DNA of 12,374 nucleotides from a virus, in UHGV virus genome UHGV-0140723; one strand, given 5' to 3'. Shown in pieces: positions 1 to 11,797 of the stretch. How positions within the stretch are numbered: the stretch's first letter is position 1; each line of letters opens with the position of its first letter. A model generated the notes under the pieces. That model was not told where the DNA came from. It ran no database searches and saw only the letters and a list, made by a program, of their open reading frames with translations. Made by a program: the position numbers and the translations under genes.

Positions 1-236
1 CTTTTTTCGTTGTATTTTGTCAGAATCTCACAAGATAAAACATCATATTTTGTAACCGCTTTGCCTTTGTCGAGGTCAAAGAATCCGAACGCTTTACCGT
101 CTTTGAATCCGACAACTTCGTAAGACTCTTTAATGATTTCACCATTGAACAAATCACTCTCGATACGATGGAATAATGCTACATCCTCTTTGTCGGTTGC
201 AATTTGTAAAAGTGTGGTCAGTTCGACGTGTTCCAT
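1..236 (-). CDS. hypothetical protein, 3' end cut by window edge (78 codons visible, MEHVELTTLLQIATDKEDVALFHRIESDLF...)
   Basis: ATG at 234-236 (minus) preceded by the conserved cassette RBS (sense CCTAAACTGGAGATTCAAAATG). Frame is open to position 3 with no stop; absent from the ORF track because no stop lies in the window. Confidence 0.55.
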   Translation of the reverse strand, partial: MEHVELTTLLQIATDKEDVALFHRIESDLFNGEIIKESYEVVGFKDGKAFGFFDLDKGKAVTKYDVLSCEILTKYNEK

Positions 237-324
237 TTTGAATCTCCAGTTTAGGATTTTATTTAGTGGGGGGAGGTCATCCCCCGTTGATTGACAATTT
301 ACAGATTTTTGATTGTCTCGTCAA
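237..324 (-). promoter_or_regulatory. PeSL-like cassette, family 1 (promoter, 5'UTR hairpin, RBS)
   Basis: Sense strand: -35 TTGACG (319-324), 17-bp spacer, -10 TAAATT (296-301), hairpin GGGGGA/TCCCCC (269-285), then RBS GGAG and ATG. The -35 and -10 lie inside the 3' end and stop codon of CDS 299..829. Confidence 0.6.
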
Positions 325-829
325 TATCTTTTTCAATATCTTTTAAAGTTTTCTCTAAGTTCTTGATATTGAACGTTAAACCTTCACCGAGAGTCTTAGA
401 GTAACCGCTAGGGCGTAAATCATGCAGCTTGATTTCTTCCACATTGGATAAGTTTACCATCTCACCATTTGCAGCATAGGCTATTGATACAGTATTTTTA
501 GGTGCGTTGTAAAACTTGTTTAAGGACTTGATAGAACGTTCATAAGCCATTTTATAGCTATTTAAAAGGTTTTTAACGTGGCTGTGAACGTTTTTACACT
601 CATCTAAATAAAGACCTAAAAACATCGGGAGAAGTTCCGCGACAGCTTGCATAAAGTGAGAGACCACAACGGTTGCAACATTACGACGATGAACGTAATA
701 AGCCCCGTTTTCTGATTTGGTAATGGTTGCAAAGTGTACCCCATTACAACGAAATTCATAGGTATCTTTAACAGGCTTAGACATTACATTATTTGAACGA
801 ATATAGTTGATAGCTTTGAACTTGTTCAT
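299..829 (-). CDS. hypothetical protein (176 aa, MNKFKAINYIRSNN...)
   Basis: ATG at 827-829 sits directly behind the conserved cassette (+ strand cattttagaatctcctagtttaagg). The six-frame ORF 299..922 extends this frame upstream through the regulatory cassette from a TTG codon, which I treat as an artefact. Confidence 0.65.
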   Translation of the reverse strand: MNKFKAINYIRSNNVMSKPVKDTYEFRCNGVHFATITKSENGAYYVHRRNVATVVVSHFMQAVAELLPMFLGLYLDECKNVHSHVKNLLNSYKMAYERSIKSLNKFYNAPKNTVSIAYAANGEMVNLSNVEEIKLHDLRPSGYSKTLGEGLTFNIKNLEKTLKDIEKDIDETIKNL

Positions 830-922
830 TTTAGAATCTCCTAGTTTAAGGACTTTACTTAGTAGGGAGGTTATTGCCTCCCCGTTGATGAGTAATTTAC
901 TTGTTTTGATATCTGATTGCAA
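830..922 (-). promoter_or_regulatory. PeSL-like cassette, family 1
   Basis: Sense strand: -35 TTGCAA (917-922), 17 bp, -10 TAAATT (894-899), hairpin GGGAGG/CCTCCC (865-882), RBS AGGAGA, ATG at 829. Confidence 0.6.
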
Positions 923-990
923 GCAATTTTTTAAGTCTATCTATAAAGAATCTTTTAAGTTAATCCCTTTTAGATAAACCCCCTCGAACA

Positions 991-1019
991 AAGTTACCAA
1001 TGTCAAGAGGGATTGTCAA
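991..1019 (-). promoter_or_regulatory. additional sigma70-like promoter upstream of the 830..922 cassette
   Basis: Sense strand TTGACA (1014-1019), 17 bp, TAACTT (991-996). The segment 923..1051 has no credible ORF. The -35 region tgtcaacatctttttaaa recurs at 2724-2741. Confidence 0.4.
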
Positions 1020-1051
1020 CATCTTTTTAAAAGTTTTTTGTAAGTTATTGA

Positions 1052-1393
1052 TTAACTGATGAATATTTTTTCAGGTTTTACATAGCTGATACGCTGATTT
1101 TTTAGTAGGCTATCCCATAACAAGGCGGCAATGTGCCCATATCCGGCCTCACGCAGCCCCTTCATCGTTTCAACTCGACTCTCAAAACGATTTGCGTAAT
1201 ACTCGCTATTAAGTGTCGTTTTGTTCCCTTCGTTATCTGTATGGATGATTTGCATCACTTGAAAGGGGCTGACATCCTCGCCTTTGTTCCACTGCTCAAA
1301 GTATTTTAGGCACTGCATAGGTGACATCTTATCACTTACTTGAGTTGACCAAGATGAATCTTCTTTATCGGTAATTACAGTTACATAAGCCAT
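1052..1393 (-). CDS. hypothetical protein (113 aa)
   Basis: ATG at 1391-1393 directly behind a family-1 cassette with RBS AGGAGA; ORF from the track. Confidence 0.7.
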   Translation of the reverse strand: MAYVTVITDKEDSSWSTQVSDKMSPMQCLKYFEQWNKGEDVSPFQVMQIIHTDNEGNKTTLNSEYYANRFESRVETMKGLREAGYGHIAALLWDSLLKNQRISYVKPEKIFIS

Positions 1394-1487
1394 TTTAGAA
1401 TCTCCTAGTTTAAGGACTTTATTTAGTGGGGAAGGTCATTCCCTCCCCGTTGATTGACAATTTACAGACTTTTATCAGGCTTGTCTA
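1394..1487 (-). promoter_or_regulatory. PeSL-like cassette, family 1
   Basis: Sense strand: -35 TAGACA (1482-1487, overlapping the TAG stop of CDS 1485..1718), 17 bp, -10 TAAATT (1459-1464), hairpin GGGGAGGG/CCTTCCCC with one G.U wobble (1428-1448), RBS, ATG 1393. Confidence 0.6.
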
Positions 1488-1718
1488 GTCTTTTTCAATG
1501 ATAATTTCATATTGACCATCGACACTGTCAAAATAGACGCCGTCTTCATCTTCTGTCTTAAAGTAGCATTGAATATCATCACTGGCGGGATAGTCTTGTC
1601 TTGCTATCTGGCAAACTTGAATAGCATTTTCTTTACTCCCTGTAAACTCCTCAAGCCCTTTAAAATCACATGAATGACCATTACAAATAGAAAGGATAAG
1701 ATAAACGGTTGTAAGCAT
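1485..1718 (-). CDS. small protein with hydrophobic N-terminus and 4 Cys (77 aa); possibly exported
   Basis: ATG at 1716-1718 with RBS AAGGG about 8 nt upstream. N-terminus MLTTVYLILSICNGHSC is signal-peptide-like. No cassette upstream, only a short hairpin (1737-1751), so probably co-transcribed with 1782..2345. Confidence 0.55.
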   Translation of the reverse strand: MLTTVYLILSICNGHSCDFKGLEEFTGSKENAIQVCQIARQDYPASDDIQCYFKTEDEDGVYFDSVDGQYEIIIEKD

Positions 1719-1781
1719 GATTTAAGCCCTTTAAATGGCCCTGTATGGGCCTTAAGTTGGAAGTTGGTGTCTTTGTACTGA

Positions 1782-2345
1782 TTAACCTAAAAAGTCTTTT
1801 AAATTGCGCTCTGTGATGTTTGCCGTGATTTTATCCAGCAAGTCACAAAACACGGAACTATCACCGCTATTCTGTACAATTTTCGCCATACTTAACAAAT
1901 CATCGTCAACATAGCCTAAATTGCGGTTAGTTGCATCTGGTACAAAGAAAGGTGCATACATCGCACTAAATTTCGTCGAGTGAAGGCCAATAATCCAATT
2001 TTTATCAAAGTGTCCGGTAAAGCTGGCGATATCGCTCATGTTGTCACAAGAATAATCATCCTCTAGCTCTTCCTCTGGGATATCCATCTCAATGACAATT
2101 ACGTCCTGCGTTTCCATTTGGAAAGCTGCCGTAATAAGCCCAGATTCTAAAGCGTTTTGAATGCAGCGTTCACGAATGTAAGAATCTTCCTCATCTTCCA
2201 GACATTCCGTTTTGATAATCTTGTTCATTGGGTAAACGTAGAAACAATCATCCATGTATGAGCAGTTCCAGATTCCTTCCGGCTTGTCGCCACCATTCAG
2301 CAGGTTTACAAAGTTTTTGAGGGTAGTTCCGTGATAGCATTTCAT
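1782..2345 (-). CDS. hypothetical protein (187 aa); possible H-Y-E class ADP-ribosyltransferase-like fold (low-confidence functional call)
   Basis: ATG 2343-2345 behind a family-2 cassette. N-terminal MKCYHGTTLKNFVNLLNGG and downstream GIWNCSYMDDCFYVY resemble, from memory, the YHGT...GG and W-x-x-(F/S)-Y motifs of diphtheria toxin and exotoxin A and the DarT N-terminal motif. No search was run. Confidence 0.45.
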   Translation of the reverse strand: MKCYHGTTLKNFVNLLNGGDKPEGIWNCSYMDDCFYVYPMNKIIKTECLEDEEDSYIRERCIQNALESGLITAAFQMETQDVIVIEMDIPEEELEDDYSCDNMSDIASFTGHFDKNWIIGLHSTKFSAMYAPFFVPDATNRNLGYVDDDLLSMAKIVQNSGDSSVFCDLLDKITANITERNLKDFLG

Positions 2346-2427
2346 TTTTGAATCTCCTAGTTTAAGGATTGAGTGGTAAAGCTCTTTATCTGGGGCTTAA
2401 GTTATCAACTTTTAAGCCCCTTGTAAA
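2346..2427 (-). promoter_or_regulatory. PeSL-like cassette, family 2
   Basis: Sense strand: upstream stop TAA, then -35 CTTTACA (2422-2427), 17-bp spacer containing the 5' arm of hairpin GGGGCTTAA/TTAAGCCCC (2392-2420), -10 TAACTT (2399-2404) preceded by TG, then AGATAAAGAGCTTTACC...CTAAACTAGGAGATTCAAAAATG. Confidence 0.55.
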
Positions 2428-2432
2428 GTACT

Positions 2433-2636
2433 TTATTTGTTATTTTTGACAACTTTTAAAACTGCAAGGTAACCTAAGCAATAAGAATCACCGAAAAGAG
2501 TCCTACCCATGAAAGAATCCTCTTTGATATCCTTTGCAGTGACAGTTTTTTCTACGCCGTGGGAAAGGACTACATCACCAACTTTGATATCTTTGATGTG
2601 TGTTGTTTCAATGGTTAAGCCGTTAATAATAGCCAT
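2433..2636 (-). CDS. hypothetical protein (67 aa)
   Basis: ATG 2634-2636 behind a family-1 cassette; stop TAA at 2433-2435 is the first triplet of the next cassette. Confidence 0.6.
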   Translation of the reverse strand: MAIINGLTIETTHIKDIKVGDVVLSHGVEKTVTAKDIKEDSFMGRTLFGDSYCLGYLAVLKVVKNNK

Positions 2637-2729
2637 TTTAGAATCTCCTAGTTTAAGGACTTTATTTAGTAGGGAGGTTATTGCCTCCCCGTTGATGAGT
2701 AATTTAATCTATCTAAAAATCAGTGTCAA
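2637..2729 (-). promoter_or_regulatory. PeSL-like cassette, family 1
   Basis: Sense strand: -35 TTGACA (2724-2729), 17 bp, -10 TAAATT (2701-2706), hairpin GGGAGG/CCTCCC (2672-2689), RBS, ATG 2636. The -35 directly follows the stop of CDS 2737..3141. Confidence 0.6.
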
Positions 2730-2736
2730 CATCTTT

Positions 2737-3141
2737 TTAAAGTTCTGCGTAGATTGCATCACAGACATCACGGAAATCATGATTTGTTAAGTTACGTTGT
2801 AACCAAGTGGCAAAGAAATCAGCGATTGCAAAATTAGCGTCATACTCGACGGATAGCCACACTTTAACAGCAAATCGGAACATCTTTAAATCAAGCTCTT
2901 TATTCATTACCTTTGATTTGCCTAACATGTCGGCCATCTCATGTTGTGCACCGTCTAGCGTGATACCGGCTGCAACGTCAGCCAATGAGTTTTTTACGCT
3001 TTCAACGTCTAAGATAATACTTTGAATCTTCCCAATAATGTTTTGCAGTGTTTCATCTGGTGCTGATGATGTGATAACATTAATCCGGTTGACGGTCAAA
3101 CGTGCTTTTAAGATAGATAACTCACGATTATTAATAGCCAT
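2737..3141 (-). CDS. hypothetical protein (134 aa)
   Basis: ATG 3139-3141 behind a family-2 cassette (RBS TGGAGA); ORF from the track. Confidence 0.7.
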   Translation of the reverse strand: MAINNRELSILKARLTVNRINVITSSAPDETLQNIIGKIQSIILDVESVKNSLADVAAGITLDGAQHEMADMLGKSKVMNKELDLKMFRFAVKVWLSVEYDANFAIADFFATWLQRNLTNHDFRDVCDAIYAEL

Positions 3142-3221
3142 TTTTGAATCTCCAATTTAGGATTTAGTGGTAAAGCTCTTTATCTGGGGCTTACTTTATC
3201 GAACTATAAGCCCCTTGTAAA
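3142..3221 (-). promoter_or_regulatory. PeSL-like cassette, family 2
   Basis: -35 TTTACA (3216-3221), 17 bp, -10 TAAAGT (3193-3198), hairpin GGGGCTTA/TAAGCCCC (3186-3214) with a 13-nt loop. The central part is identical to the copy at 5239-5267. Confidence 0.55.
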
Positions 3222-3226
3222 GTACT

Positions 3227-3499
3227 TTATGCTAAATGCAGCTTTTTGCCTTTTACTATGATGTAACTTGATGCGCTATTGCCGCATACATCTTGATAAA
3301 TTCTACGCAAACGGCCTTCGTAGTATACTTTCCAGCTAGTTGGAATCTTTTTCCCGTATCCGGTAGCAGTTTTTTGGAATCCTGCAAGTTGCCAATCCAA
3401 AATGTGCTGTTCAGCTTGTAAATCCTCGAAGTGCATTACACCGTTCACATAGTGGCGTAGGGTTACGTTTAAGGTGCGACCGTTGTTAGTAGTGTACAT
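3227..3499 (-). CDS. hypothetical protein (90 aa)
   Basis: ATG 3497-3499 behind a family-1 cassette; stop TAA 3227-3229 abuts the -35 of the next cassette. Confidence 0.65.
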   Translation of the reverse strand: MYTTNNGRTLNVTLRHYVNGVMHFEDLQAEQHILDWQLAGFQKTATGYGKKIPTSWKVYYEGRLRRIYQDVCGNSASSYIIVKGKKLHLA

Positions 3500-3593
3500 T
3501 TTTGAATCTCCTAGTTTAAGGACTTTACTTAGTGGGGAAGGTCATTCCCTCCCCGTTGATTAGTAATTTACTTGTTTTTAAAACTAAAATCAA
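3500..3593 (-). promoter_or_regulatory. PeSL-like cassette, family 1
   Basis: -35 TTGATT (3588-3593, overlapping the TGA stop of CDS 3590..3922), 17 bp, -10 TAAATT (3565-3570), hairpin GGGGAGGG/CCTTCCCC (3534-3554), RBS, ATG 3499. Confidence 0.55.
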
Positions 3594-3922
3594 GAGAAAT
3601 TTTTTCGTTTGTTCAGTTCTTGGACAATTACAGTGTAATAGTCTTTTAAGTCACTGATATTTAAAGCATTTATCAGAGAGTTATAATCATCGACAAGCTG
3701 AAAATTATCTTTGAAAATGTCACTGATTTGATAAGTTTTTGATTGAAATCTGAAGCTCATTTCTAACCGTTTTATTTGTTCATCACTTAAACGCTCCAGA
3801 AAACTCATTACAAGGCTATTATTGACCTGTTGCGTGATTGCCTTACTTGCCAGATTGTAGGCGCTGTACGCCTTATATAGCGCCATAATAGCAATGATTG
3901 CAGTGATACCCATCATTAACAT
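3590..3922 (-). CDS. small membrane protein (110 aa, N-terminal transmembrane helix MLMMGITAIIAIMALY)
   Basis: ATG 3920-3922 overlaps the stop of the upstream gene (ATGTTAA, 7-nt overlap); RBS AGAGGAAG 8 nt upstream. Hydrophobic N-terminus seen directly. Confidence 0.6.
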   Translation of the reverse strand: MLMMGITAIIAIMALYKAYSAYNLASKAITQQVNNSLVMSFLERLSDEQIKRLEMSFRFQSKTYQISDIFKDNFQLVDDYNSLINALNISDLKDYYTVIVQELNKRKNFS

Positions 3923-4212
3923 AGTGCTTCCTCTTTACGTGACACTTTGCCATTTACAGTTATCTCATAAGAATCTAGTAAATCACTTTCAGACTTAACA
4001 GGACTTTTACAAGTATCATCATAAACATTAATTTGCAATACAGGCTTTTTATACTCCCTGCAACTATTCCATAAGCAAATCACTACACGACGGCCTTTTA
4101 TTTTGCCGTGTAACCATTCCATAACCTCATGAGTATTTCTTGAGGTCTCGATAAAATCAATTTTGTTGAGTAACTTGCTTAGATTTTCCCTAACTTTATT
4201 TGATAATTTCAT
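3916..4212 (-). CDS. hypothetical protein (98 aa)
   Basis: ATG 4210-4212 behind a family-2 variant cassette; translationally coupled to 3590..3922. Confidence 0.65.
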   Translation of the reverse strand: MKLSNKVRENLSKLLNKIDFIETSRNTHEVMEWLHGKIKGRRVVICLWNSCREYKKPVLQINVYDDTCKSPVKSESDLLDSYEITVNGKVSRKEEALC

Positions 4213-4292
4213 TTTTGAGTCTCCTAGTTTAAGGTTAGTTAATAAAGCTCTTTATCTGGGGCTATCTTATCAGCTTGATAACCCCGTGTAAA
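4213..4292 (-). promoter_or_regulatory. PeSL-like cassette, family 2 variant
   Basis: -35 CTTTACA (4287-4292), -10 TAAGAT (4264-4269), hairpin sense GGGGTTATC/GATAGCCCC (4258-4285). Inner stem base pairs differ from other family-2 copies by compensatory changes plus one G.U wobble. Confidence 0.55.
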
Positions 4293-4301
4293 GAGGTCTA
4301 T

Positions 4302-4814
4302 TTAGTTCTTAAAGATATTCATCACTGAATCTTTTAATGCTTCCAAGCGTTCTAATACTTCAGATTCTGCGTCTGCGTTGTTCACTTCCTCTTTTAGTCT
4401 GTTATCTAAATCATCGCCGTCACTGTAGCACCAATCGAAAGCATAACCAATATAAAAACTCTCTAAAACCGTGCTACCGTTTGCATCTACAACTTTCGCG
4501 GCGATGTTATATTCTGAAGCCTCTAAATCTCTTTCTAGTTCTTTCTGTAAGCTGATATAAGCCTCTTTTGATGGATTTTCCCGGCCTTGTTTTGCATAGT
4601 CACTCGAAAGCTGTTTCAGGCTGTAATGTAAAGGGATTGCATATTTAAATTCATTACGCTGATAAATAGGATTTTTAACAGTAACACCGCCTTGATGGTT
4701 GTCTGTAAATTCCCAATTATCAAGGTTATGGCTTGCTTCGTAGCAATTAACAGCTTCGTAAATGATGGAAAATTTTTCTTTTACAACTTCAAAGGTAGCG
4801 TCTACAGTTTTCAT
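4302..4814 (-). CDS. hypothetical protein (170 aa, acidic C-terminal half)
   Basis: ATG 4812-4814 behind a family-2 cassette; ORF from the track. Confidence 0.7.
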   Translation of the reverse strand: MKTVDATFEVVKEKFSIIYEAVNCYEASHNLDNWEFTDNHQGGVTVKNPIYQRNEFKYAIPLHYSLKQLSSDYAKQGRENPSKEAYISLQKELERDLEASEYNIAAKVVDANGSTVLESFYIGYAFDWCYSDGDDLDNRLKEEVNNADAESEVLERLEALKDSVMNIFKN

Positions 4815-4894
4815 TTTTGAATCTCCAGTTTAGGATTTAGTGGTAAAGCTCTTTATCTGGGGCTTAAGATATCAGCTTTTAAGCCCCTTGTAAA
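4815..4894 (-). promoter_or_regulatory. PeSL-like cassette, family 2
   Basis: -35 TTTACA (4889-4894), 17 bp, -10 TATCTT (4866-4871), hairpin GGGGCTTAA/TTAAGCCCC (4859-4887). Confidence 0.55.
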
Positions 4895-4902
4895 GTACTT
4901 TA

Positions 4903-5193
4903 TCAGTTAATTTTCAGCTTTGCATAACCTCTCATTGTACGAATGGGAGACGTTAAGGTTACGCGTCTGATATATGCCTTTTTAGTGTATACAGTTGTCT
5001 TCCCGATGGTGTTTACATGCGTGAAAAGGTTTATTGGTGAATTTTTTAAATTCATTTGTTTATCAGCCTTCACACCCCATCTTACAGCAGTTTGTTTTCC
5101 GTTGTCAACCACTTTTCCGCCTAACTTTTTCGCCATGATGCGAGCGTCATCACGAGTTTTTGCAGGAATTACAACGTTTTTGATAATAGCCAT
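4903..5193 (-). CDS. hypothetical basic protein (96 aa, MAIIKNVVIPAKTRDDARIMAKKLGG...)
   Basis: ATG 5191-5193 behind cassette RBS TGGAGAAC. The track ORF 4903..5208 starts at a TTG inside the RBS region and is an artefactual 5-codon extension. Confidence 0.65.
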   Translation of the reverse strand: MAIIKNVVIPAKTRDDARIMAKKLGGKVVDNGKQTAVRWGVKADKQMNLKNSPINLFTHVNTIGKTTVYTKKAYIRRVTLTSPIRTMRGYAKLKIN

Positions 5194-5274
5194 TTTTAAG
5201 TTCTCCAATTTAGGATTTAGTGGTAAAGCTCTTTATCTGGGGCTTACTTTATCGAACTATAAGCCCCTTGTAAA
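5194..5274 (-). promoter_or_regulatory. PeSL-like cassette, family 2
   Basis: -35 TTTACA (5269-5274), hairpin GGGGCTTA/TAAGCCCC (5239-5267), same loop as the 3142..3221 copy. Confidence 0.55.
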
Positions 5275-5282
5275 GTACTTTA

Positions 5283-5663
5283 TCAGTTAATTTTGAAAAT
5301 TGTCACATAGCCGTCACTGCCGATTATTTGAGACACTCCAGCTTTTTCCACTGAATAGCCCATATTTTCAAGATGATAAACAGCATCATCATAACCATAT
5401 GCGCCACCCTGATAACGTCTCTTATCGCATCTTATCAGGTTTTTACCACGTCCTGCAAGTGCATTCAGTACGGCTTTTTCACTTGATAGCGTACCATCTA
5501 ACATGGTTGCCGTGTAATGGTTGATTTTATTCCCGTTAATATCATACTTAAAATTGAATGCGTGAACAACAATCAATTTGCCGTTAAATTTTTCATCAAG
5601 TGACTTCTCCAGTGCGTTGCGGAAGTTGTCTTTGTTGATGAATTTCGGTGCACGATAAGCCAT
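5283..5663 (-). CDS. hypothetical protein (126 aa)
   Basis: ATG 5661-5663 behind a family-2 cassette. Last codons and stop (AAA ATT AAC TGA) are identical to those of CDS 4903..5193. Confidence 0.7.
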   Translation of the reverse strand: MAYRAPKFINKDNFRNALEKSLDEKFNGKLIVVHAFNFKYDINGNKINHYTATMLDGTLSSEKAVLNALAGRGKNLIRCDKRRYQGGAYGYDDAVYHLENMGYSVEKAGVSQIIGSDGYVTIFKIN

Positions 5664-5746
5664 TTTTGAATCTCCTAGTTTAAGGGTTAATTTAGTAAAG
5701 CTCTTTATCTGGGGCTTAAGATATCAGCTTTTAAGCCCCCTGTAAA
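5664..5746 (-). promoter_or_regulatory. PeSL-like cassette, family 2
   Basis: -35 TTTACA(G) (5741-5746), hairpin GGGGCTTAA/TTAAGCCCC (5711-5739), RBS AGGAGA, ATG 5663. Confidence 0.55.
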
Positions 5747-5751
5747 GTACT

Positions 5752-5958
5752 TTATTTGTCGTAGTAGTAAATCGCTGTCTGCCTTGTAAATTTCTTAGTG
5801 TTTCTTGTAAGGTAGCAATTAGAATTAATAGCCGTTTCTACATAGTTGCAATAGTCGGCTTCTGATATTCTGGACCATACGCCACAGATTTTCATGTAAA
5901 AACGTTTTACCTTTGTGTTAACGTTAGTTGTAACCATTAATTCACGATAGTAAGTCAT
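5752..5958 (-). CDS. hypothetical protein (68 aa)
   Basis: ATG 5956-5958 with RBS TGGAGAA; driven by the divergent cassette at 5959..6037. Confidence 0.6.
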   Translation of the reverse strand: MTYYRELMVTTNVNTKVKRFYMKICGVWSRISEADYCNYVETAINSNCYLTRNTKKFTRQTAIYYYDK

Positions 5959-6037
5959 TTTTGGATTCTCCAGTTTAGGAAGTGGGCTGGCTTGCCCGTC
6001 TGATGCAAATATTAAATAACCATAGTCAAAGAGTCAA
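5959..6037 (-). promoter_or_regulatory. divergent promoter + stem-loop + RBS cassette (first module of the array)
   Basis: Sense strand: -35 TTGACT (6032-6037), 17 bp, -10 TAATAT (6009-6014), short hairpin GGGC/GCCC (5984-5997), RBS TGGAGAA, ATG 5958. Same architecture as family 1, different sequence. Confidence 0.55.
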
Positions 6038-6203
6038 TAGGAATTTTAAAAATATTTTTGCAAAAAAAAAAAACTGTAATGAAACGGGTGCGCGCGATTA
6101 CCACAAAACAGAACTATAATCAAGAATTATTTTTCAATCCGCTACAAATTTTTCTGTTGACTTTTATTTTCAGATGTGGTAGCCTTGTGAGAAATGGCGA
6201 CAG

Positions 6204-6400
6204 CCCCACCTACCCCCACCTACCTGCACAATTCTAAAATGATTTTTCTTGCCCGACCTGAGCGGGGTCTGCACGTTTTGAAAATGAAAAAGCTCTTTGG
6301 AGATTACCTGCACAGTTTGAAAATGAATTTTCTCTTTGGAGTTCAAAATTTTCTCTACAGATTTCTCTACAGAACTCTACCTGCACAATTCTAAAATGAA
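6204..6400. repeat. cluster of short direct repeats in an ORF-free segment
   Basis: Four copies of CTGCAC(A/G)nTT(C/T)(T/G)AAAATGA starting at 6224, 6269, 6309 and 6382, two of them within a ~40-bp tandem unit (6268-6302 vs 6308-6342, 28/35 identical); tandem cccacctac x2 (6204-6222); tandem tttctctacag x2 (6351-6373). Confidence 0.6.
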
Positions 6401-6443
6401 AAAGCCCTCCTTACCTGAAAAATTTACCAGATAAGAAAGGCTT
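6391..6443 (-). terminator. intrinsic terminator-like long hairpin downstream of the macrodomain gene
   Basis: Sense RNA: AAGCCUUUCUUAUCUG / loop GUAAAUUUUU / CAGGUAAGGAGGGCUU gives a 16-bp stem with three G.U wobbles, followed by UUUCAUUUU. The wobbles would be C-A mismatches on the opposite strand. Confidence 0.5.
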
Positions 6444-6472
6444 AGGCTATTGTGAATATCCTACAGAGTTTC

Positions 6473-7258
6473 TTAGTTCTTTGCGTCTAAGAAGGTAACT
6501 TCTGGTGAAGAGAAGATTGCCTCGATATCCTCATCAGTTCTTGCATAGATATAAGCTTCTGCATCACTACCAAATGTTACAGCAATTCTGTGATTGCTCT
6601 TTGACAGGTGGGTAACTAGAGCGTTACTTAGAGACATCTTTTCAACCGGAGGGTTACTTTGATGTATCTTACCTTTTCTTCGTCTGAAGAGGGTAACTGC
6701 GTTATCTGTGAACACTGCTACACCTGCAAAGTATTCTGGTTCACAGTAGTTCTTCCAACCTGAGCGTAACTTGTGGTACATCTCGCCTTCATAGACATAC
6801 AGATAAACATCTACACTCTTCATCACCTGATTGATGATAACTGTGATGGCTTGAGGGTCAAGTCCACCGATACCTGCACCAATCATAGGTAAACCAACTT
6901 TCTTCAACTGATTAACTTCACAGTATCTGTTAAGCTGCTTCAAAGATGACTCTAAAGCACTGTATCGGGCATCTTTACCAGTCTTAAGCTGAGTGTAAAG
7001 GTTAGCTATACGGCCTTGTTCTAAACGTGCTACAGAGAAATTACCCAGTAAATTTTCACAGGGTTTGTGGCCTATACCACCTGCATATAGATAAACTTCT
7101 GTATCGGTCTCATATGCTTTTGGGTAAAGTTTAGAAATCTTGTCAGCGATACCTGCACCCATTAAATTCATACAGTTGCAACCGTGACCGATGATGTCAA
7201 ACTTACCTTTATCAAATGCGGCAAAGATATCACCATTGATTATTTTTACAATACCCAT
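6473..7258 (-). CDS. macrodomain protein, TARG1/OARD1/DarG-like N-terminal domain (~150 aa) plus unknown ~110-aa C-terminal domain
   Basis: 261-aa ORF; ATG 7256-7258 abuts the upstream stop (TAAATG) with RBS GGGAGAG. Motifs GDIF...GHGCNCMNLMGAGIA and LPMIGAGIGGLD match, from memory, the GDLF...HCISEDCRMGAGIA and MPRIGCGLD signature regions of human TARG1. Confidence 0.7.
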   Translation of the reverse strand: MGIVKIINGDIFAAFDKGKFDIIGHGCNCMNLMGAGIADKISKLYPKAYETDTEVYLYAGGIGHKPCENLLGNFSVARLEQGRIANLYTQLKTGKDARYSALESSLKQLNRYCEVNQLKKVGLPMIGAGIGGLDPQAITVIINQVMKSVDVYLYVYEGEMYHKLRSGWKNYCEPEYFAGVAVFTDNAVTLFRRRKGKIHQSNPPVEKMSLSNALVTHLSKSNHRIAVTFGSDAEAYIYARTDEDIEAIFSSPEVTFLDAKN

Positions 7259-7459
7259 TTAACATCTCTCCCAAGACTCTTTATCTTCTGAAGGTTTTAC
7301 ACGCTGTCCTTCGTGGTCTACCCAGATGCACCCACAACCTTCACAGATTACTGGCATTGCGTAGCCAGCTTTAAAGTCATCTTCAGTGATAAGACCTTTT
7401 AAGTCACCTGTATCACGTCCGAACATTTCGATAGAACAATCTTTACAGAAGTCAGCCAT
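7259..7459 (-). CDS. small Cys-rich protein (66 aa, CxxC...CEGCGC, zinc-ribbon-like)
   Basis: ATG 7457-7459 overlaps the TGA of the upstream gene (ATGGCTGA); RBS AAGAGG 9 nt upstream. The track ORF 7259..7537 begins at a GTG inside the upstream gene; I prefer the coupled ATG. Confidence 0.5.
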   Translation of the reverse strand: MADFCKDCSIEMFGRDTGDLKGLITEDDFKAGYAMPVICEGCGCIWVDHEGQRVKPSEDKESWERC

Positions 7460-7679
7460 GAATAATTGCCTCTTGAATGATGATACCTTTACCACAACGA
7501 CTTTTAAAGTCTTCCAATGGTTCAGAGATGAAGCCACGTAAGCAGTCAGTAAATACTAAGTTCTTCCTGTAAGCTATCACATCATTTGCTGTAAATGGGA
7601 TGACCTCATTTCGTCCAATGAACACTGCTGACCTGATAAGCTTTCGTGTCTTTTTATCTCTGGCTAGTATTACTTTCAT
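7452..7679 (-). CDS. hypothetical basic protein (75 aa)
   Basis: ATG 7677-7679 with RBS GAGAAGG 7 nt upstream; overlaps the end of the upstream gene by 26 nt in another frame. Confidence 0.55.
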   Translation of the reverse strand: MKVILARDKKTRKLIRSAVFIGRNEVIPFTANDVIAYRKNLVFTDCLRGFISEPLEDFKSRCGKGIIIQEAIIHG

Positions 7680-8759: not shown

Positions 8760-8777
8760 TTAACAATCTCCTGAAAT

Positions 8778-8799
8778 GAAAAAGGCTCCCGAAGGAGCC
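8778..8799 (-). terminator. rho-independent terminator
   Basis: Sense RNA GGCUCC-UUCG-GGAGCC, a perfect 6-bp GC stem with UUCG tetraloop, followed by UUUUUC. Lies 13 nt after the stop of CDS 8812..9276. Confidence 0.8.
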
Positions 8800-8811
8800 T
8801 GTATCTTAACC

Positions 8812-10539: not shown

Positions 10540-10568
10540 ATTATACAGCACTCTGCACAAAATACAAA
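10540..10568 (-). promoter_or_regulatory. sigma70-like promoter for the 9960..10508 unit
   Basis: Sense strand TTTGTA (10563-10568), 17 bp, consensus TATAAT (10540-10545), about 30 nt upstream of the ATG. Confidence 0.5.
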
Positions 10569-10591
10569 TAAAAAAGGCCGCCGGAGCAGCC
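10569..10591 (-). terminator. rho-independent terminator after rIIB
   Basis: Sense RNA GGCUGC-UCCG-GCGGCC (6-bp stem with one U.G wobble) followed by UUUUUUUAUUU; starts about 17 nt after the rIIB stop. Confidence 0.7.
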
Positions 10592-10608
10592 TTTTAAGAA
10601 ATTACTTA

Positions 10609-11718: not shown

Positions 11719-11792
11719 CTTATTACTCTCTCTTGTTAGTTAATAAATCATTTTGTGAGGATATTCTAAGGGGCTTCAAAGCCCCTTGTCAA
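11719..11792 (-). promoter_or_regulatory. rIIB promoter with hairpin in the spacer (family-2-like architecture)
   Basis: Sense strand: rIIA stop TAA, then -35 TTGACA (11787-11792), 18-bp spacer containing hairpin GGGGCTT/AAGCCCC (11770-11785), -10 TAGAAT (11763-11768). Confidence 0.55.
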
Positions 11793-11797
11793 ACACT

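Follow-up and report, generated by a model that had tools for sequence, protein, structure and literature searches.

Hairpins between the early genes of a Felix O1-like phage: probable stem-loop modules of promoter-bearing intergenic cassettes

The stretch of viral DNA considered here (12,374 nucleotides (nt) of UHGV virus genome UHGV-0140723; hereafter, the window) carries two families of short, GC-rich hairpins between its small early genes, and the stems differ from copy to copy while continuing to pair. What, then, is being maintained? A preliminary description attributed this behaviour to selection on an RNA structure in the early transcripts, rather than on a DNA-level feature. The RNA-structure reading proves largely right for family 2 and is plausible for family 1, whereas the exclusion of a DNA-level role does not hold, as the same elements also carry conserved sigma70-type promoters and act as mosaic recombination junctions. 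Overall, we conclude that the hairpins are probably the stem-loop modules of repeated intergenic regulatory cassettes between small early open reading frames (ORFs), and the Ounavirinae counterpart of the promoter-early stem-loop (PeSL) cassettes of the T4-like phages RB49/phi1, PST/T4 and nt-1/KVP40 (Arbiol et al. 2010, PMC2839356; Comeau et al. 2014, PMC4122927). For the hairpins themselves, we infer a function in 5'-end protection, attenuation of read-through or processing.

By megablast, the source of the window is a Felixounavirus (a Felix O1-like myovirus of the Ounavirinae), the best relatives, including Salmonella phage SeKF_63, Escherichia phage AYO145A and many others, aligning at 91–94% identity over 96–100% of the length. 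The genes are carried by the minus strand, with rIIA/rIIB at the right end of the window; its left part is taken up by small hypothetical ORFs, and the hairpins under study lie inside this early block. Twelve cassettes are present in the window, set between ORFs of 67–207 amino acids (aa), and the layout is identical in 20 related loci. Each comprises an upstream stop codon, a sigma70-type promoter, a GC hairpin, a conserved leader with a Shine-Dalgarno (SD) sequence, and an ATG. Three features go beyond the preliminary description: two outer helices in family 2, a promoter on or next to each hairpin, and the weakness of the covariation in family 1.

Covariation of the stems and strand bias of their wobble pairs

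Direct reading of the sequence places every stem where the preliminary description had put it. On the plus strand, the family-1 stems are GGGGGA GGTCA TCCCCC at 269–285 (sense GGGGGA/UCCCCC), GGGAGG TTATTG CCTCCC at 865–882 and 2672–2689 (sense GGGAGG/CCUCCC), and GGGGAAGG TCATT CCCTCCCC at 1428–1448 and 3534–3554 (sense GGGGAGGG/CCUUCCCC, with one G.U). The family-2 inner stems occur in six copies, at 2392–2420, 3186–3214, 4258–4285, 4859–4887, 5239–5267 and 5711–5739. The statement that these are mostly GGGGCTTAA/TTAAGCCCC is correct for three of the six, but not for the copies at 3186, 5239 and 4258: in sense, three copies read GGGGCUUAA/UUAAGCCCC, those at 3186 and 5239 read GGGGCUUAU/GUAAGCCCC, with a U.G at pair 9, and that at 4258–4285 reads GGGGUUAUC/GAUAGCCCC. 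The three compensatory swaps proposed for the last of these are indeed present, pairs 7, 8 and 9 being altered on both sides, and there is an additional U.G at pair 5. Wherever a pair in the window is imperfect, it is G.U when read on the minus (sense) strand and A.C when read on the plus strand, as had been claimed.

RNA folding shows that the family-2 element is larger than its inner stem: 6 base pairs (bp), a 1×1 mismatch, 5 bp, a 3×3 internal loop, the 9-bp inner stem and a loop of 10–11 nt. The two outer helices thus lengthen the stem to an irregular hairpin of ~20 bp, and the whole constitutes a long near-palindrome with 33-nt arms that are 76% complementary. For the intergenic RNAs of family 2, the folding z-scores range from −3.3 to −5.6, such that 0–1 of 200 shuffles fold equally well, and in the 4258 copy the outer helices re-form using different sequence. 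Taken by themselves, the family-1 hairpins stand out less from their surroundings (z = −1.3 to −2.7).

For the comparative analysis, the homologous block was taken from Felix O1, wV8, AYO145A, Mushroom, nataliec, ESCO50, LNA1, vB_SflM_004 and S.Kent 1-2-1, together with members of Mooglevirus (Michonne, Moogle, KPS64, Sf13 and Henu11), Suspvirus (EcSzw-2) and Kolesnikvirus (Erwinia phages phiEa104 and MM7), and PMBT37. IMG/VR contigs were also added; an 18-mer query gave ~25 Felix-like contigs, whereas among the matches listed for a 15-mer most were chance ones. A covariance model of family 2 (R1; 65 nt, with a structure of 20 bp), seeded with copies of equal length, was searched against 21 non-redundant loci; this search was used in place of a first one, whose best 150 matches did not include the divergent stem class. 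A MAFFT alignment was rejected, as it put the 1-nt length difference of the UUAUC class in the 3' arm and broke the register, whereas the covariance model assigns the gap to the loop.

Family 2 is present in all four Ounavirinae genera (Felixounavirus, Mooglevirus, Suspvirus and Kolesnikvirus) and in PMBT37, with differing stems, others being GGGGUUUAUA/UAUAAGCCCC and, in the Erwinia phages, GGUGUUUAG/CUAAGCACC. R1 matched 108 copies; across the 84 that are distinct, 98.0% of 1679 pair cells are paired, as against 89.9 ± 0.4% after shuffling, and the covariation score is 0.213, as against 0.068; neither value is reached by any of 500 shuffles. When the partners are shifted by 1–3 columns, at most 58% of cells pair. 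Far from being broken as often as it is kept, pairing therefore persists in the larger alignment. Within the inner helix, 99.3% of cells are paired and double changes are seen at four of the nine pairs: pair 3 (G-C/U-A), pair 7 (U-A/A-U), pair 8 (A-U/U-A) and pair 9 (five pair types). Double changes also affect two pairs of the outer helices, one of them a G-C to U-A change in 11 distinct copies, which falls in opposite halves of two flanking TAAAGnnCTTTA motifs. An anchor-based table made without the structure model gave the same classification of the family-2 stems. The covariation supports the inner helix and, modestly, the outer helix.

For family 1, the corresponding model (R2) gave 92 matches, all on the gene strand. 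The compensatory variation that had been proposed for its stems stands insofar as an A-U pair shifts jointly on both arms among three stem types; however, the events are few, with double changes at two of the eight pairs (seven cells), and the covariation is weak, because the G-run/C-run arms can pair in several registers.

The wobble pairs provide the second line of evidence. Family 2 has 149 G.U cells against 4 A.C cells (one of the latter from an antisense match and the rest singletons in the outer helix), and its complement would be only 89.3% paired. The model-based count for family 1 is 39 G.U against 8 A.C, with 95.6% of cells paired in sense and 88.7% in antisense; a register-aware count gives 26 against 4, every A.C being a singleton. 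Among unique hairpins, the mean folding free energies for sense and antisense are −12.1 and −10.1 kcal/mol in family 2, and −11.0 and −9.1 kcal/mol in family 1; the sense strand is therefore ~2 kcal/mol more stable in both families (Wilcoxon p = 1e-5 and 2e-7). Mutation bias is an unlikely source of the G.U excess, as the composition of 4-fold degenerate sites on the sense strand (T 521, A 357, C 162, G 142) is asymmetric by at most 1.5-fold. Pairing is thus upheld, as the preliminary description had it, by double changes and by wobbles of the gene sense. Since the latter are nearly confined to the gene-sense strand, the selected structure is single-stranded and of sense polarity; most likely, it is a sense-strand hairpin that is under selection, RNA being the simplest reading.

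Promoters, transcript starts and mosaic junctions

The cassettes of the window are as follows; coordinates for the family-2 cassette at 2343–2435 extend from its upstream stop codon as far as the downstream ATG, and promoters are given as −35 hexamer, spacer length and −10 hexamer.

236–324, minus strand: family-1 cassette; TTGACG-17-TAAATT (324–296, promoter scan), hairpin 269–285, then leader, SD and ATG.
833–925, minus strand: family-1 cassette; TTGCAA-17-TAAATT (read by eye), hairpin 865–882, with an outer G.U at 864/883.
1391–1487, minus strand: family-1 cassette; TAGACA-17-TAAATT (1487–1459, promoter scan), hairpin 1428–1448 (GGGGAGGG/CCUUCCCC, G.U at pair 6).
2343–2435, minus strand: family-2 cassette; inner hairpin 2392–2420 (GGGGCUUAA/UUAAGCCCC), TTTACA-N17-TAACTT; z = −4.2, model R1 score 92.4 bits.
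2634–2739, minus strand: family-1 cassette; TTGACA-17-TAAATT (2729–2701, promoter scan), hairpin 2672–2689.
3139–3229, minus strand: family-2 cassette; inner hairpin 3186–3214 (GGGGCUUAU/GUAAGCCCC, U.G at pair 9), TTTACA-17-TAAAGT.
3497–3600, minus strand: family-1 cassette; TTGATT-17-TAAATT (read by eye), hairpin 3534–3554.
4210–4304, minus strand: family-2 cassette with the divergent stem; inner hairpin 4258–4285, TTTACA-17-TAAGAT with TG before the −10; z = −5.6.
4812–4905, minus strand: family-2 cassette; inner hairpin 4859–4887, three-helix hairpin ~4838–4905, TTTACA-17-TATCTT with TG before the −10; z = −4.5.
5191–5285, minus strand: family-2 cassette; inner hairpin 5239–5267 (U.G at pair 9), TTTACA-17-TAAAGT.
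5661–5754, minus strand: family-2 cassette; inner hairpin 5711–5739, TTTACA-17-TATCTT with TG before the −10.
5956–6040, minus strand: family-1-like cassette at the head of the block; TTGACT-17-TAATAT (6037–6009), hairpin GGGC/GCCC at 5984–5997, then SD and ATG.
11765–11795, minus strand: related arrangement at the rIIA-rIIB junction; TTGACA-AGGGGCTTTGAAGCCCCT-TAGAAT, with a 7-bp hairpin entirely within the 18-nt promoter spacer (labelled merely as a promoter in the AYO145A record).

Both families carry sequences that match the sigma70 consensus and are predicted to be active promoters, although the hairpin is placed differently with respect to each. In family 1, the order is TTGACx-N17-TAAATT, 10 nt (e.g. 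ACUCAUCAAC), the G-run/C-run hairpin and then ACUAAAUAAAGUCCUUAAACUAGGAGAUUCUAAAAUG; a conserved leader and SD follow the hairpin. All 42 contexts contain TAnnnT, and in 39 the distance from its end to the stem is exactly 10 nt, with TTGACA-like hexamers 17 nt upstream of the −10 in the copies of the window; the predicted transcript start (+1) consequently lies 2–4 nt before the hairpin. In family 2, the order is stop-UAAAGUACUUUACAAGGGGCUUAA-loop-UUAAGCCCCAGAUAAAGAGCUUUACC...SD...AUG, and the promoter, TTTACA-N17-TAnnnT, is superimposed on the 9-bp hairpin: the 5' arm coincides with the promoter spacer, and the −10 is divided between the loop, which has its first half together with the TG, and the 3' arm, which has its end as well as the discriminator. 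A promoter scan detects TTTACA-17-TAnnnT in five of the six copies in the window, three of which have the extended −10 TG. Among 66 distinct copies with the −35 TTTACA, TAnnnT follows 17 nt downstream in 60 and 18 nt downstream in five (65/66 overall), and TG precedes the −10 in 38. The −10 variants TATCTT, TAAGAT, TAGTAT and TAAAGT are each accompanied by a complementary spacer; the stem is thus preserved by a promoter-neutral spacer that follows the end of the −10. The predicted family-2 +1 is the conserved A directly after the stem (after CCCC), and because it follows the stem, the cassette's own transcript would lack the hairpin, which only RNA read through from upstream could form.

Two other promoter assignments were rejected. 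In the first, the TAAAGT upstream of the family-2 hairpin, where it overlaps the stop codon, would serve as a −10; one copy fits (GTGACA-18-TAAAGT, 5306–5277), but the −35, which is not conserved, would lie in unrelated coding sequence, so that this is not the general arrangement. An antisense promoter within the near-palindrome was ruled out, as there is no −10.

The cassettes are also mosaic junctions between related genomes, which matches the role of recombination linker attributed to PeSLs. In blastn comparisons of window positions 1–6500 with 15 relatives, 73 of 93 ends of homology fall inside cassettes ± 15 nt, intervals that make up 22.5% of the region (p = 4e-30, a value that is optimistic because the 15 subjects are related to each other). 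The starts of the best megablast matches cluster in the same way (230–253, 883–914, 1385–1391 and 2301–2323). Additionally, in Citrobacter phage Michonne (locus 7346–7523), two family-2 cassettes are almost contiguous, as the first leader's start codon leads directly into the CTTTACA of the next cassette (...GGAGAATCTAAAATGCTTTACATGGGG...); this looks like the scar of an ORF deleted between two cassettes.

The leader has a structure of its own. The SD of every cassette leader (e.g. 2355–2370 and 4822–4836, minus strand) lies inside a small anti-SD/SD hairpin, UCC(U)-UAAAYU-(A)GGA. In 200 distinct contexts, the form CC-TAAAYT-GG occurs 148 times, CCT-TAAAYT-AGG 52 times and the mixed form not at all; the two differ by a paired U/A insertion that lengthens the stem and that, with the two sites just 6 nt apart, may be one inherited event. 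The cassette hairpins, by contrast with the suggestion that they might exert translation control, are unlikely to do so, being 25–40 nt upstream of the SD and without pairing to it.

A number of further observations concern the block and its surroundings. A different intergenic hairpin, at 1716–1784 (hairpin 1737–1751), reads GGCCC-AUACA-GGGCC in sense; its counterpart in wV8, annotated as a terminator, is CCCC-UUACA-GGGG followed by a T-run, and that in Moogle is GCCCC-GCACA-GGGGC. Here, too, the stem sequence varies among phages with pairing maintained. The cassette block is headed by a 514-nt non-coding gap (5956–6475), which contains the TTGACT-17-TAATAT site listed above, a good sigma70-like match, an A12 run at 6061–6072, and 3–5 copies of a ~30-nt repeat containing CTGCAC (sense GTGCAGGTA; 6221–6249, 6269–6302, 6305–6341 and 6378–6414); a kindred motif, GTGCAG...TATAAT, follows rIIB at 10553–10586. 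Possible roles for the repeat-bearing gap are those of a regulator-binding array, of a phage-specific promoter motif and of an origin. The names 'tail sheath monomer', 'tail tube protein' and 'prohead assembly scaffold protein', given to several small cassette-flanked early ORFs (66–110 aa) in the records for ESCO50 and vB_SflM_004, are probably mis-annotations that have been propagated. Moreover, GU169904.1 (147 kb), named Staphylococcus phage SA1, contains DNA with 92% identity to the window over 81% of its length; this record has the look of a mixed or chimeric assembly and not of a gene block from a Staphylococcus phage.

Proposed mechanism and alternative explanations

In the mechanism that we propose, the two families would act on different transcripts. 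The mRNA of a family-1 cassette would start 2–4 nt before the hairpin, which, being 5'-terminal, would shield the message from 5'-end-dependent decay. In family 2, the 9-bp hairpin and its ~20-bp extension would form only in RNA read through from the upstream gene; the hairpin would attenuate or process this transcript, the 3'-terminal hairpin left over would protect the upstream mRNA, and the embedded promoter would restart transcription for the next gene. Each small gene would thereby become a self-contained, exchangeable expression unit. More tentatively, and with considerable doubt, we suggest that family 2 is dual-coded, with a host promoter inside an RNase III-type (or otherwise cleaved) hairpin, such that read-through RNA would be cut on the 3' side of the internal loop, at the start nucleotide of the embedded promoter; processed and primary mRNAs would then have their leader and 5' end in common, while a protective 3' hairpin would stay on the upstream mRNA. 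Formation of the hairpin in nascent RNA could also couple upstream transcription to the firing of the downstream promoter. Timing data for Felix O1 place the peak of the cassette-preceded ORFs 16, 20, 21 and 22 at 5 min post-infection (PMC3185647, Table 3).

A number of points weigh against the interpretation of the hairpins as RNA modules of PeSL-like cassettes. Family-2 pairs with a change on both sides number 6, as against 5.4 in shuffles, and are therefore not in excess; there are few independent events (roughly 5–6 double changes and 10–14 wobble events), and the cell counts overstate the support because the cassettes spread by duplication or recombination. The model structure was used to fit the alignments (A4 and A6). 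Near-palindromic TAAAGnnCTTTA motifs, which could have another role, overlap with the outer helices of family 2, and for family 1 the proportion of paired cells is scarcely above that of shuffles (93.8%), with 95.5% still pairing when the partner is slid by −1. The +1 positions, and hence the descriptions '5'-terminal' and 'read-through only', are predictions from consensus spacing, a literature search having found no transcript 5' or 3' ends for Felix O1-like phages. Not all of the cassette-preceded ORFs of Felix O1 peak early: ORFs 17, 19 and 23 do so at 25 min (PMC3185647, Table 3). Lastly, none of the cassette hairpins has a U-tract, the stems being followed by AGAUAAAGAG (family 2) or ACUAAAUAAAG (family 1), and a terminator scan of the window flags no cassette; as canonical U-tract terminators are present elsewhere in the same window (8776–8800, 10571–10600 and 6402–6443), efficient intrinsic termination at the cassettes is doubtful.

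This last point bears directly on the proposal that the hairpins are plain Rho-independent terminators between early genes and nothing more. In its favour, GC-rich stems follow directly after stop codons, and downstream lacZ expression was lowered as much by one PeSL stem-loop, 211/210, as by rrnB T1 (PMC2839356); nonetheless, besides the missing U-tracts, the family-2 loops of 10–11 nt are larger than usual, and neither the conserved embedded promoters nor the position of the family-1 hairpin 10 nt past the −10 would be explained, so that we regard this as quite improbable. We think it similarly improbable that pairing is under no selection at all, a few ancestral palindromic alleles having been spread by duplication and gene conversion so that covariation and wobble bias are inherited artefacts. 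The paucity of independent events, the mobility of the cassettes as junctions, the lack of an excess of pairs changed on both sides, and the fact that related sequences can beat all shuffles even without structure would each be accommodated. However, the family-2 stem alleles, of which there are at least five, are all self-complementary, including the GGUG.../...CACC of the Erwinia phages, and the inner helix is almost invariably paired; A.C cells occur only as singletons while G.U variants reach high copy number, which is the signature of purifying selection; and the hairpin is kept across genera whose cassette flanks have diverged.

Could the selected feature instead reside in the DNA? If the inverted repeats acted as double-stranded elements controlling the early promoters, either as operators for dimeric regulators or as cruciforms, one could account for the long near-palindrome of family 2 with its two flanking TAAAGnnCTTTA 12-mers, and for the observation that model R1 recognizes the antisense strand as well, with a score roughly half as high; moreover, palindromic terminator stems can serve as transcription factor sites (bioRxiv 10.64898/2026.08.19.745784). 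Yet a single genome has several self-complementary stems (CUUAA, UUAUC, CUUAU, GGGGAGGG and GGGGGA), which could not be read by one sequence-specific protein; the half-sites change complementarily rather than identically; the strong asymmetry between G.U and A.C is unexpected, since in duplex or cruciform DNA a G.T on either strand is paid for with an A.C on the opposite one; and the 3×3 internal loops and the central loop of 10–11 nt disfavour cruciform extrusion. This explanation is accordingly very unlikely. A hairpin in the sense (non-template) DNA strand that modulates promoter use or recombination, and that might form in the open promoter complex, behind the transcribing polymerase or in single-stranded replication or recombination intermediates, is harder to set aside, although we still consider it unlikely. 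As the non-template strand shares its sequence with the RNA, the bias of G.T over A.C is just as compatible with this reading. In addition, spacer and −10 are precisely where the family-2 hairpin is located, the cassettes serve as junctions for recombination, and PeSL crossovers were mapped within or beside the stem-loop (PMC2839356). Conversely, a sequestered −10 would be expected to hinder, not help, the binding of sigma70, and the family-1 hairpin is downstream of the −10 and outside the initial bubble. Furthermore, G.T pairs stabilize DNA less than G.U pairs stabilize RNA, and this general consideration also counts against a DNA hairpin.

Comparison with known systems

No Rfam family matches the cassettes: when the whole window was run through cmscan at E ≤ 1, three weak hits arose by chance, and none of them lies at a cassette. 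The elements have, however, been noticed before as repeats. The genome paper for Felix O1 (Whichard et al. 2010, PMC3185647) reports 57-bp and 39-bp 'direct repeats', assigns them no promoter, hairpin or function, and states that the organization of transcription is unknown; the wV8 record (EU877232) marks the same elements as repeat_region DR_1–DR_9. The 57-bp repeat, CTTTACATGGGGCTTAAAAGTCTGTAAAGTAAGCCCCAGATAAAGAGCTTTACCACT, is the family-2 cassette, whereas the 39-bp repeat, TTGACACTGG...ATCAAC, is the family-1 promoter.

Three systems share particular aspects of the arrangement. In the promoter-coupled terminators of bacteria (Fletcher et al. 2026 preprint, bioRxiv 10.64898/2026.08.19.745784), as here, one intergenic stretch provides the upstream unit with an RNA stem-loop and, at once, the downstream unit with a promoter, and the predicted RNA 3' end and the next +1 are within a few bases of each other. 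They differ in that the −35 is supplied by the stem-loop DNA and the spacer by the T-tract, the −10 lying downstream, whereas in the present cassettes the stem is in the spacer and −10, and there is no T-tract. The early RNase III hairpins of phage T7 (R0.3, R0.5, R1, R1.1 and R1.3), cleavage of which leaves a protective 3' hairpin on the upstream mRNA, likewise constitute a repeated intergenic hairpin family in early transcripts of the host polymerase, beside promoters. Folds computed at what we take to be the positions of these sites have upper stems of 9–13 bp with G.U pairs, akin to those of the cassettes; on the other hand, the T7 loops are of 3–5 nt rather than 10–11 nt, and there is no sequence similarity. 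A processing site of the T7 early type is an irregular helix of at least ~20 bp whose internal loop lies roughly a helical turn away from the apical loop; with helices of 6, 5 and 9 bp, and a 3×3 internal loop 9 bp below the apical loop, family 2 has dimensions that recall such sites, whereas the family-1 hairpins (6–8 bp) are too short to be RNase III substrates. The latter may be compared with the ompA-type 5'-terminal stabilizer hairpins of Escherichia coli mRNAs, reportedly described by Emory, Bouvet and Belasco in 1992: at a predicted 2–4 nt from the mRNA 5' end, the family-1 hairpin would have the geometry needed against 5'-end-dependent decay, the difference being that its start site is a predicted one.

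The closest parallel is with the PeSLs, which combine a sigma70-like promoter with a G-run/C-run stem-loop containing G-T pairs, flank small ORFans, and have measured promoter and terminator activities and a role in modular shuffling (PMC2839356; PMC4122927). The present cassettes are, similarly, a repeated composite of ~60–100 bp extending from the stop codon of a small ORF to the next SD/ATG, with a sigma70-like promoter (TTTACW-N17-TAYWAT in the T4/PST type of PeSL) and a G-run/C-run stem-loop with G-T pairs; they cluster in a block of small accessory ORFs and coincide with indel and replacement boundaries between relatives. Even the variable placement of the PeSL stem-loop, which sits between the −35 and −10, overlaps the −10 or comes after it (PMC2839356), has its equivalent: the 11765–11795 stem is wholly in the spacer, that of family 2 lies over the spacer, −10 and discriminator, and that of family 1 is 10 nt past the −10. 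The likeness drawn here is one of layout and parts. PeSLs were described in T4-like myoviruses and the carrier here belongs to the Ounavirinae, which is a difference of description rather than of working; family 2 additionally has the two extra helices, which wrap the whole promoter into a ~20-bp hairpin. The PeSL papers do not include a test of covariation or strand bias ('compensatory' occurs 0 times in that of 2010, PMC2839356), whereas the promoter, terminator and mini-circle activities of PeSLs were measured. A literature search found no paper applying the PeSL design to Felix O1-like phages.

Felix O1-like phages are widely used in the typing and biocontrol of Salmonella and E. coli, and the cassettes supply ~12 predicted early promoters and transcript boundaries per genome; they are also likely breakpoints when these phages recombine, and could provide compact promoter, insulator and ribosome-binding-site parts for phage engineering. 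In family 2, a promoter and an RNA stem would share 30 bp, the sequence-neutral spacer covarying with the end of the −10. The arrangement as a whole exemplifies the PeSL design, already known, in a phage subfamily other than that of its description; a hairpin-overlaid promoter flanking exchangeable small ORFs is, therefore, not limited to T4-like phages, and its wider occurrence supports the PeSL design as a general solution for plug-and-play accessory genes.

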